A stretch of DNA of 58,214 nucleotides, taken from assembly GCA_038319115.1 (NCBI GenBank), contig JBBQCV010000001.1:1-58214 (forward strand). The letters are read 5' to 3'. The DNA comes from Burkholderiales bacterium (GTDB lineage Bacteria; Pseudomonadota; Gammaproteobacteria; Burkholderiales; SG8-39). The notes beneath the pieces are model-generated. The model was given only the letters and a program-made list of their open reading frames with translations, was not told the origin of the DNA and did not search any database. Numbering within the stretch: the stretch's first letter is position 1; every line of letters starts with the position of its first letter. The position numbers and the translations under genes are program-made. This document shows positions 8,476 through 58,214 of this stretch, piece by piece.

Positions 8476-9401
8476 GGCGTGCCTTCTTTCAGTCCAAGCA
8501 GTCGGAGCGGATTGGCGACGAGGATCCTGTGCAGCACGGCCTCGTCGGGGGCGAATTCAAACAACGCGTCCAGCAAGCGGCCATCATCGGGCATGCGCAC
8601 CGGATCGAACACGCCGGTGTGTGGCCAGTCGCTGCCCCACAACATCCTGTCGGGCGCGATTTCGATCAGGCGCTGCGCGAACGGAACCACGTCGGCGTAC
8701 GGCGGGCCTGACCGGGTAAGGCGGTCGGCACCACTCAGCTTGACCCAGACGTTGTCCTGCCGCGCCAGTTCGGCCAGCACGCCAAAGGAGTCCTGCGCGA
8801 GGCCGAGCGTGGGATCGATGCGACCCATGTGGTCGATCACAATCGGGACGCGGATGCCCGCGAGCCACGCCTTGAGGCCGGGTAGCGCGGCGCCCTCGAA
8901 GTGCAGCTCGACGAACCACCCCAGGCCGTCAATGCAATCGAGCACGTGATCGAAGACCGCAGGATCAAGCGCGCCGCCATGTTGCGGGTTGAAAGCGAAG
9001 CGCACCCCGCGCGCACCTTGCGCGTGGAGCTTTTCGCATCCTTCGCGGGAGGCCGTGCCGTCCAGGCGCACGACCGCGAGATAGCGCCCCTCCGAGTGCG
9101 CCGCCGCGTCGAGGTCGACCGCGTTGTCGAATCCGTGGGTGTTGGCATGCACCACCAACCCACGCTCGATGCCGAGCGCCCGGTGCATGCGCAGGCACGC
9201 ATCGAGCGGCGCATCCGGTGGCGTGTACTTGCGCTTGGGCGAATAGGCAAAGCGCGCCTGCGGGCCGAGCACATGGAAGTGGGTGTCCCATGCGCCGGCG
9301 GGCAGCGCGCGGCGCGGACGCAAAGGCGCGGGGAGCGGGCCGAGGCAAGCGCGGATCACGGGATCCGGGTTGACGCGCCCGGAACGCTCAGGGATCGACA
9401 A
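8463..9401 (-). CDS. Amidohydrolase-2 family protein (LigI / 2-pyrone-4,6-dicarboxylate hydrolase-like)
   Basis: 312 aa. WDTHFHVLGP (HxH), IVIDHMG, WGSDWPH motifs. Start overlaps the dioxygenase stop by 14 nt. Confidence 0.8.
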   Translation of the reverse strand: MSIPERSGRVNPDPVIRACLGPLPAPLRPRRALPAGAWDTHFHVLGPQARFAYSPKRKYTPPDAPLDACLRMHRALGIERGLVVHANTHGFDNAVDLDAAAHSEGRYLAVVRLDGTASREGCEKLHAQGARGVRFAFNPQHGGALDPAVFDHVLDCIDGLGWFVELHFEGAALPGLKAWLAGIRVPIVIDHMGRIDPTLGLAQDSFGVLAELARQDNVWVKLSGADRLTRSGPPYADVVPFAQRLIEIAPDRMLWGSDWPHTGVFDPVRMPDDGRLLDALFEFAPDEAVLHRILVANPLRLLGLKEGTPWTA

Positions 9402-10095
9402 AGAACGGCGTCTCGCCGTTGCCGCGCAACACGATGTCGAAGCCGAACGCCAACGTGCCGTCGGCGCCGGGCGGAAGCTCGCGCGCGATCAGAGAGGCGC
9501 GCGCTTCGAGGTCATCGATGCCGTTGAGAATCGGGTCGATGTCGTTCAGCTTTTCGTGCGGGAAATAAAGCTGCGTGATGAGCCGCTGCATGACACCCGC
9601 GCCGAAGATGGAAAAATGGATGTGCGGCGGGCGGTACCAGTCGTCATACCCGGGGTTGGGGTAATCGCCCGGCTTGATGGTCGTGAAGCGATAGCGCCCT
9701 TCGCTGTCGGTGAGCATCCGGCCATAGCCTTTGAAGTTCGGGTCGACCGGCTCGGGCGTCTGGTCGACCGGGTGCTCGTACTTGCCCCACTTGTTGGCCT
9801 GCCATACCTCCACCAGCGCACCGCGCACCGGCTTGCCCGATTCATCGAAGACCTGCCCGCTTACCACGATGGGCACACCCTGCGCCCGCGCGCCACCTGG
9901 CACCTTGCAGGCAAGGTCGTCCTCGCCCGGGTCGATGAGTGCCTGCGGGTAGAACGGCCCGACCGTCTGCGAGGGCGTGACCACCCGCACCGGCCCGGCC
10001 GGCGTGCGCGACTCGTGCACGCGATAGCCCTTGATGAGCTCGAGGCGCCGCTTGTCGACGAAAACAGAGGGATGTGGAATTGGTTTATCAGTCAT
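9388..10095 (-). CDS. Intradiol ring-cleavage dioxygenase, protocatechuate 3,4-dioxygenase beta-subunit-like
   Basis: Trimmed from ORF 9388..11130 to MTDKPIPH (CAT at 10093..10095), 235 aa. TVGPFYP, GRYRFTTIKPGDYP and YRPPHIHFSIF (His ligands) are typical of intradiol dioxygenases. Confidence 0.8.
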   Translation of the reverse strand: MTDKPIPHPSVFVDKRRLELIKGYRVHESRTPAGPVRVVTPSQTVGPFYPQALIDPGEDDLACKVPGGARAQGVPIVVSGQVFDESGKPVRGALVEVWQANKWGKYEHPVDQTPEPVDPNFKGYGRMLTDSEGRYRFTTIKPGDYPNPGYDDWYRPPHIHFSIFGAGVMQRLITQLYFPHEKLNDIDPILNGIDDLEARASLIARELPPGADGTLAFGFDIVLRGNGETPFFVDP

Positions 10096-28550: not shown

Positions 28551-28991
28551 ATGAAAACCACCCTGTCCAAACTGATGGCCGGCATTGCCCTGGCCGGTAT
28601 CCTTGCTGCAGCGCCCCTTCCCGCCCTGGCGCAACAGGCCGCGGCCGGCAAGCAACGCGTGGTGATCCAGGTCAGCGACGCCGATCCGGGCAAGTGGCGG
28701 CTCGCGCTCAACAATGCGCGTAATGTCCAGCAAGACCTCGGCGCGCAGAACGTCGACATCGAGATCGTCGCCTACGGCCCCGGCATCGGCATGCTCAAGA
28801 GCGAATCGGCCGCCGAACCCGGCGTCGTGCAGGCCATGACCGACGGGGTCAAGGTGGTCGCGTGCGAGAACACCATGCACAACCTCAAGCTCAAGCGCGA
28901 GGACATGCAGGGCGGCATCGGCTACGTCAAGGCCGGCGTGGTGGAGATCATGCAAAAGCAGCGCGCCGGCTGGTCGTATATCCGGCCTTAG
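28551..28991 (+). CDS. Secreted DsrE/DsrF-like family protein
   Basis: 146 aa. Signal peptide ending ALAQQ, RVVIQVSDADP, VACENTMHNL (conserved Cys context). It is the last gene before the palindrome axis. Confidence 0.65.
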   Translation: MKTTLSKLMAGIALAGILAAAPLPALAQQAAAGKQRVVIQVSDADPGKWRLALNNARNVQQDLGAQNVDIEIVAYGPGIGMLKSESAAEPGVVQAMTDGVKVVACENTMHNLKLKREDMQGGIGYVKAGVVEIMQKQRAGWSYIRP

Positions 28992-29223
28992 GGGCCGGGG
29001 GCGGCGGCGCCGGCCCATGCGTTTATCCGTGATCTGGTATTGCAACTCGCTTGGAACCAGCCTCCCGGGCTGATCTAGCTAAATGTAAGTCCGACAATCA
29101 CCGTGCCGGCACGGTGATTGTCGGACTTACATTTAGCTAGATCAGCCCGGGAGGCTGGTTCCAAGCGAGTTGCAATACCAGATCACGGATAAACGCATGG
29201 GCCGGCGCCGCCGCCCCCGGCCC

Positions 29224-57494: not shown

Positions 57495-58148
57495 CTAGAA
57501 TTTCGGGATCCGCAGCGTCTTGCTGATCATCAGCGTGCCCGAGAGCACGAACAGCAGGCTCAAGGGGTGCAGGTCCCAGCCCAGCGACCACACGCCGCCA
57601 TACAGGGCCTCGCCGATGCGGCCGCGCCACACAGCGAAAGTGAGCAGCGCGGTGAGCACCACGCTGGAGGGAATGGGGGTGCCTTCGAAATAGGCGACCT
57701 TGCCGCTATCGGTGGCGAGGCTCTCGGCCGTGACGTTGAAGCGCGCGAGGCGGCTCACGCCGCAGCAGACAAAGTAGATCAGCGCGAACGCATCCCACCC
57801 GCCACGCATGCCCGCGGCGAAGGCGAGGGCGGCAGGGGCCACCCCGAACGAGATCACGTCGGCGAGCGACTCGAGTTCGCGTCCGAAGGCCGAGTGGGTG
57901 TGGCGCGCGCGCGCGATGCGCCCGTCGAGCACGTCGAAGAAGAACGCCAGCGGCGCCATCGCCGCGGCCCAGAGGAAATGGCGGATCCAGCCGCTGTCGA
58001 TGAACAGCATGGCGAGGAACACGCCGGCCACCCCGCACGCCGCGTTGGCCAGCGTGAACAGGTCGGCGAGGTGGAAGCTGCGCACCATCGAAAGGTGTCG
58101 CGGCGCGCCTTGCTCGAGGGCGGTTTCGAGGATCGTCTTCAAGGCCAT
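57495..58148 (-). CDS. pssA: Phosphatidylserine synthase (mirror copy)
   Basis: Mirror copy of 67..720; palindrome caveat. Confidence 0.85.
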   Translation of the reverse strand: MALKTILETALEQGAPRHLSMVRSFHLADLFTLANAACGVAGVFLAMLFIDSGWIRHFLWAAAMAPLAFFFDVLDGRIARARHTHSAFGRELESLADVISFGVAPAALAFAAGMRGGWDAFALIYFVCCGVSRLARFNVTAESLATDSGKVAYFEGTPIPSSVVLTALLTFAVWRGRIGEALYGGVWSLGWDLHPLSLLFVLSGTLMISKTLRIPKF

Positions 58149-58158
58149 CTCCGGTGGA

Positions 58159-58197
58159 GGGGTTGGGCAGGTGGGTTAGGCAGGCGGGTTGGGCAAG
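58159..58197 (-). repeat. Three tandem 13-nt repeats (mirror copy of 18..56)
   Basis: Reverse complement of 18..56, read directly from the sequence. Confidence 0.8.
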
Positions 58198-58214
58198 TTC
58201 GTGCGCAGGGCCTG

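Follow-up and report, generated by a model that had tools for sequence, protein, structure and literature searches.

Contig C1, all 58,214 nt of which make up the window analyzed here, reads to the last base as its own reverse complement, and the question that it raises is whether the axis of this symmetry is a biological structure or a product of assembly. The contig is the longest of the 420 in the draft genome G000 (4.14 Mb, 66% G+C, N50 of 14.6 kb). A repeat search found a single inverted repeat that spans the full window, with arms at 1-29107 and 29108-58214 that are 100% complementary and have a spacer of 0 nt; C1 is, in other words, a spacerless palindrome of 2 x 29,107 nt with its axis at 29107|29108. 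A previous reading made from the letters alone (the sequence-only reading) had described the axis as the breakpoint at which unique sequence ends, and this is borne out. That reading had left the choice between biology, in the form of a telomere tip or a resolvase target, and a strand-switch artifact. In this study, we found support for an artifact in the k = 141 structure of the contig, in the gene order of relatives, and in the location of the expected next gene, dinB, on another contig (C197). We conclude, with a probability of about 0.92, that C1 is a palindromic unitig made by a de Bruijn graph assembler, a fold-back artifact that corresponds to no biological structure.

The palindrome has no counterpart in the rest of the assembly. 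C1 alone among the 420 contigs is a perfect palindrome over its whole length, and it is far beyond what chance would produce, because the next-longest spacerless palindrome in the 4.14-Mb assembly has arms of only 14 nt. Spacerless palindromes with arms of at least 11 nt occur at 11 sites elsewhere in the genome. The longest natural ones of G000 lie at C2:24982, C3:15495, C36:21744, and C177:2318; these four, with arms of 12 to 14 nt, have the form AAAAAG-GC-rich-CTTTTT and were all assembled through normally. Judged by their sequence, they resemble bidirectional intrinsic terminators.

The ends of the contigs reveal the type of assembly from which C1 comes. Exact overlaps between contig ends number 298, and since 276 of them are exactly 141 nt long, the assembly was produced from short reads on a de Bruijn graph with a final, odd k of 141. 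The assembler was most likely MEGAHIT. A k of 141 is the default final value of MEGAHIT and 21 its default smallest value, and sibling assemblies of related organisms in ENA carry contig names in the MEGAHIT style ("k141_"), which is circumstantial evidence. At the scale of the contig, four features describe C1.

1-29107, + strand: left arm of the palindrome, a real single-copy segment of chromosome that ends at an assembly dead end, with ettA and dsrE in the order seen in relatives and each canonical 141-mer present once per arm.

29108-58214, - strand: phantom arm, the exact reverse complement of 1-29107 (100% complementary, 0 nt spacer), with all 141-mers at multiplicity 2.

1-141, no strand: k-mer overlap with the right end of contig C113 (141 nt, 100% match to C113:11316-11456), mirrored at 58074-58214.

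29037-29178, no strand: self-reverse-complementary 142-mer centered on the axis at 29107|29108, the (k+1)-mer edge that forms an inverted loop by the mechanism given in PMC9528984.

Counted at k = 141, the 58,074 k-mer positions of C1 hold 29,037 distinct canonical 141-mers, every one of them at multiplicity 2, and the 142-mer listed above is the only one in the contig that is its own reverse complement. A single 141-mer is common to C1 and any other contig; it is terminal and belongs to C113. Seen as a path in the graph, C1 is a single unitig of 29.1 kb that the assembler traversed in one direction and then, by way of one inverted loop, in the other; the return pass wrote the phantom arm. The sequence-only reading had drawn an argument from the absence of loop nucleotides at the axis. 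A de Bruijn graph folds only through a self-reverse-complementary (k+1)-mer, however, so exact zero-loop symmetry is automatic and says nothing about biology. At either outer end, C1 connects solely to the right end of C113, with an overlap of exactly 141 nt, and C113 is therefore the genuine outer neighbor of the real arm. In the assembly, the palindrome was not carried on into C113.

The type of assembly also bears on an origin in a long-read library, the setting implied by the mention of SMRTbell and ONT adapters in the sequence-only reading. In long-read assemblies, giant perfect fold-backs most often stem from such libraries, for example when a SMRTbell adapter is missing or when an ONT read is a fold-back or duplex read. 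With 420 contigs, an N50 of 14.6 kb, and exact 141-nt end overlaps, G000 is not a long-read assembly, and we regard this origin as the least probable of those considered. No exact word of at least 7 nt was shared between 29040-29107 and the SMRTbell, ONT, Illumina TruSeq, or Nextera adapters, and a single 7-nt word was shared with one of the MGI adapters. Adapter or vector origin of 29040-29107 was rejected, as no word exceeded 7 nt and the homology of this segment to a native spacer, described below, makes the question moot.

The details that the sequence-only reading had given for the approach to the axis were all confirmed. Unique sequence continues for 116 nt after the stop of the DsrE-like gene (28991) to the axis; the segment 29072-29101, gatctagctaaatgtaagtccgacaatcac, contains 12/30 G+C (0.40); stop triplets lie at 29071-73 (tga), 29076-78 (tag), 29080-82 (taa), and 29086-88 (taa); a CCCGGG site lies at 29064-69; and the center of the axis reads ccgtgcc|ggcacgg. 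The dip in G+C content is real but unexceptional: just 0.33% of the 30-nt windows in the arm have a G+C content of 0.40 or less, yet these form 10 clusters along it. The elements between the DsrE-like gene and the axis are as follows.

28551-28991, + strand: DsrE-like gene, an open reading frame of 146 aa with a signal-peptide-like N terminus, 79 to 85% identical at the DNA level to same-genus relatives.

28992-29016, + strand: G+C-rich stem-loop (GGGCCGG, 11 nt, CCGGCCC) directly 3' of the dsrE stop, paired in both the minimum free energy (MFE) and centroid folds.

29044-29101, + strand: native intergenic spacer between dsrE and dinB, which includes the AT-rich dip at 29072-29101, as indicated by local alignment with the relative G017 and by the multiple alignments A1 and A2.

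29098-29107, - strand: probable 3' end of dinB by homology to G017, comprising the stop codon TGA (tca on the + strand at 29098-29100), the two codons before it (..A R *), and a single base more, with the remainder of the gene's tail missing from the assembly.

The orthologue of the DsrE-like protein at the related locus L022 has a weak match to the Pfam family DsrE (PF02635). The stem-loop at 28992-29016 is an insertion relative to the aligned spacers of G017, G015, and L022 (alignments A1 and A2); it is the sole element in the spacer that is peculiar to this genome and has no U-tract behind it. From the predicted fold, it may be a terminator-like hairpin. A structured RNA or terminator extending across the spacer was considered and rejected: the fold of 123 nt was no better than those of its shuffles (z = 0.06), and only the 28992-29016 stem was notable.

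DNA homology to same-genus relatives seemed to end at the dsrE stop, and closer alignment extends it in G017. The segment 29044-29101 aligns to the G017 spacer with a local score of 29, compared with 14.8 +/- 2.3 for dinucleotide shuffles, 0 of 1000 of which reach 29. The claim of homology is carried by G017, as the alignments to the spacers of G015 alone and L022 alone fell below significance; the multiple alignments A1 and A2 place the spacers of G017, G015, and L022 consistently with C1. The aligned block ends with "gacaaTCAc" in C1 and "gacaaTTAc" in G017, and the TTA in G017 is the reverse-complement stop of the G017 dinB open reading frame (8612..9910, ending at L014:9910). Since the alignment with G017 ends on the dinB stop, the low-GC stretch is native spacer and neither adapter, vector, nor island, the convergent dinB most likely has its stop codon at 29098-29100 (tca), and the axis appears to lie about 7 nt inside the dinB 3' end. 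The low-GC stretch, which had been suspected of being foreign or special, is instead a conserved part of the native dsrE-dinB spacer, with 0/1000 shuffles reaching its score. The 232-nt stretch around the axis had been called noncoding, but the innermost 10 nt or so on each side are probably the end of dinB by homology to G017. The low-GC stretch was also considered as the start of an inserted island, comparable to the 3- to 6-kb inserts of G002, G008, and G012, and this was rejected because the native spacer to which 29044-29101 aligns, that of G017, is a short one. An insert could still lie beyond the axis.

The sequence-only reading had asked what normally follows the dsrE-like gene in relatives, and the answer largely settles the question of the axis. 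The ettA-dsrE gene order of C1 matches that of relatives, and all of the same-genus relatives with a close dsrE (8/8) carry a convergent dinB downstream of it on one contig, as L022 also does. Between the aligned blocks of dsrE and dinB lie about 80 nt in G014, 170 to 190 nt in G015 and G017, and about 6 kb in G008 and G012. At L022, whose DinB is among the closest (91% identity), the spacer between the two genes measures 64 nt. G000 has its own dinB on contig C197, 83 to 92% identical to the eight same-genus orthologues that adjoin dsrE. This dinB runs off the left end of the contig at residue 330 of about 361, some 31 codons before the end of the gene, and the left terminus is a dead end that has no sequence in common with any other binned contig. 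Dead ends of this kind within the bin account for 562 of the 840 contig termini. The first bases of C197, AGCCGCACC..., have their equivalent only about 90 to 110 nt beyond the dinB stop in relatives with short spacers. With the native spacer on C1 and dinB on C197, the inner end of C1 and the left end of C197 are two dead ends, within the bin, that face each other; the gap between them would be about 90 to 110 nt if nothing is inserted. In relatives, the segment that is missing here has a G+C content of 71 to 77%.

An exact-protein look-up returned no identical match to the DsrE-like protein, and the exact 26-mer to the left of the axis had no match in genome_contigs or metagenome_contigs. 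The best DsrE match in the JGI metagenomes is 82% identical and the closest DinB homologues are 91% identical, which means that none comes from the same species. As no same-species contig was found, the case rests on homology and synteny.

The interval between dsrE and dinB is a variable hot spot in the genus, as seen in the relatives L013, L016, L019, L020, and L022. In G002, it contains a HepT-like gene with a putative partner open reading frame and two paralogous hypothetical genes. L022 has MazE-Fic just past dsrE, together with a TctC gene, and in L020 dinB is followed by a GSDH-family gene and, at a greater distance, by a MazE-like gene. On its other side, dinB of G000 is followed at C197:1185-6706 (L014:2082-7835 in a relative) by a gene for a giant UvrA-like protein of about 1,900 aa, with several UvrA/ABC modules in the manner of a doubled UvrA. 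A giant UvrA-like gene adjoins dinB in the relatives inspected (G017 and L020-L022). An Amidohydro_2 gene stands between dinB and the UvrA-like gene in G017, G002, and L022 and is missing in G000.

The gene order around the axis counts against its being a hairpin telomere, the covalently closed end of a linear replicon, in which case the axis would be half of the target of a telomere resolvase. A denatured hairpin end would give just such a symmetry, exact to the last base, and the axis does lie in or beside an intergenic region that is locally AT-rich. However, the arm is ordinary chromosome, and the gene order of 8/8 relatives crosses the position of the axis into dinB. G000 has its own dinB-uvrA2 pair on C197, which breaks off some 31 codons short of the dinB stop, at a distance that relatives with a short spacer put at about 90 to 110 nt. 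Native spacer and dinB stop together come to within 6 nt of the axis, and a conserved gene would be truncated by a telomere at this site. No resolvase is apparent either: the catalytic domain of ResT/TelK (PF16684) gave 0 matches at an E value of 1 or below in a genome estimated to be 96% complete. The last 15 nt before the axis are absent from every other contig of the bin (contigs of at least about 1.5 kb), and the last 15 to 31 nt occur nowhere else in the assembly, so there is no second copy of a telomere. We consider a telomere tip or resolvase target, the biological option of the sequence-only reading, to be highly improbable.

A real perfect palindrome deserves somewhat more weight, although it too is very unlikely. 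It could be a giant inverted duplication, or a broken chromosome capped by a hairpin, present in part of the population and formed when a short natural palindrome in the 3' end of dinB folded back and acted as a primer. In physical terms, a double-strand break in the G+C-rich tail of dinB would be followed by fold-back at ..gtgccggcac.. and by replication of the product in a subpopulation, to be assembled faithfully thereafter; this course of events has the same slim prospect. A de Bruijn assembler presented with a real perfect palindrome would put out precisely this contig, and a palindromic core, ccgg or gccggc, is present at the center. Because the graph and the contig would be the same in either case, C1 alone cannot tell a real palindrome from an artifact. 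What separates the two is C197. A coverage gap predicts a broken dinB on that contig, with the dead end at the syntenic position at which the remainder of the gene is in fact found, but a telomere or a real rearrangement does not. Moreover, the outer ends of C1 reach C113 alone, and the second outer junction of an embedded duplication is not seen. The instability of long perfect palindromes in bacteria, caused by cleavage of the SbcCD type, also counts against a real duplication.

We propose that the palindromic unitig arose as follows. The true chromosome order would be ettA, dsrE, a spacer of about 106 nt, the convergent dinB, and the uvrA2-like gene. Sequence data would have run out inside the G+C-rich 3' tail of dinB, leaving C1 and C197 with their dead ends, and at the dead end of C1 the graph would have contained a k-mer with a suffix that reads the same on both strands. 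There is formal proof that a k-mer with a self-reverse-complementary (k-1)-suffix creates an inverted loop (Rahman & Medvedev, Genome Res 2022, PMC9528984). Where such a loop is "lonely," that is, the sole edge at the end of a unitig, the result in the doubled graph is a palindromic maximal unitig (PMC9528984). Without a true path to compete with it, the inverted loop at the end of C1 would have been the only edge, and the unitig would have been emitted followed by its reverse complement.

The k-mer that seeded the fold could have come from either of two sources. The first is a fold-back (inverted) chimeric read. MEGAHIT retains mercy k-mers, those flanked by two solid k-mers within a single read, and for the next k it takes k-mers from contigs as well as from reads (PMC7299287). 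A chimeric read could have been kept under this rule because a mercy k-mer joins a node without an exit to a node without an entry; a dead-end node and its own reverse complement would be just the configuration that is bridged in this way. A single fold-back chimeric read at the dead end could thus suffice, with the fold carried up to k = 141. The second source is a short natural palindrome, ..caccgtgcc|ggcacggtg.., which would have been met at the smallest k (21 under MEGAHIT defaults) and carried as a contig into larger values of k. If the smallest k was 21, such a seed would have to be at least 22 nt long (atcaccgtgcc|ggcacggtgat) and be followed immediately by the coverage gap. A rough estimate based on 11 sites, 562 dead ends, and 4.1 Mb puts at 1 to 2% the chance that a random dead end has a natural 22-mer palindrome no more than about 10 nt away. 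For this reason we favor the chimeric read, which would probably have nucleated on a shorter core (ccgg or gtgccggcac).

The significance of this finding is one of quality control only. Half of the longest contig of a metagenome-assembled genome, 29.1 kb with roughly 26 genes, is a phantom copy. The copy inflates genome size, estimates of contamination from duplicate markers, and counts of paralogues, and it obscures how dsrE and dinB are truly joined. Part of the contamination estimated for G000 (5.62%) is probably due to it. Statements about paralogy or copy number are unsafe for any gene within 1-29107. The correct representation of the locus is C1 cut at 29107 and set beside C197 across a short gap.

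Three known systems invite comparison with C1. The hairpin telomeres made by protelomerases, such as TelN of phage N15, ResT of Borrelia, and TelA of Agrobacterium, have closed ends that also sequence as spacerless palindromes. Unlike these, C1 belongs to a genome without a resolvase gene or a second telomere copy, and its axis is situated inside conserved synteny, where a telomere would truncate dinB.

A closer likeness is found in the unitigs treated by Rahman and Medvedev (PMC9528984), with which C1 shares its formal properties: it is its own reverse complement at an odd k, it has one central (k+1)-mer, and it contains each canonical k-mer twice. In a test on a synthetic genome that contained real palindromes, SPAdes and MEGAHIT assembled straight across them and ABySS split them (PMC9528984). 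In contrast to the palindromes of those synthetic genomes, which are real, that of C1 is most likely unreal, with the true continuation missing at a dead end. The same study found unitigs to be unsafe when coverage is imperfect or low (PMC9528984), and it is to this result that the fold of C1 is tied.

Whole-contig palindromes have also been described as assembly errors in SPAdes assemblies of Mycobacterium bovis, where they affected 81 contigs (PMC9455707). As in those cases, the entire contig is palindromic, every gene is duplicated as an identical reverse complement, and gene counts are inflated. The M. bovis contigs were assembled with SPAdes from isolates and were described without an analysis of their junctions (PMC9455707), whereas for C1 the junction could be placed within a few bases of the dinB stop and the neighbor on the far side of it located.
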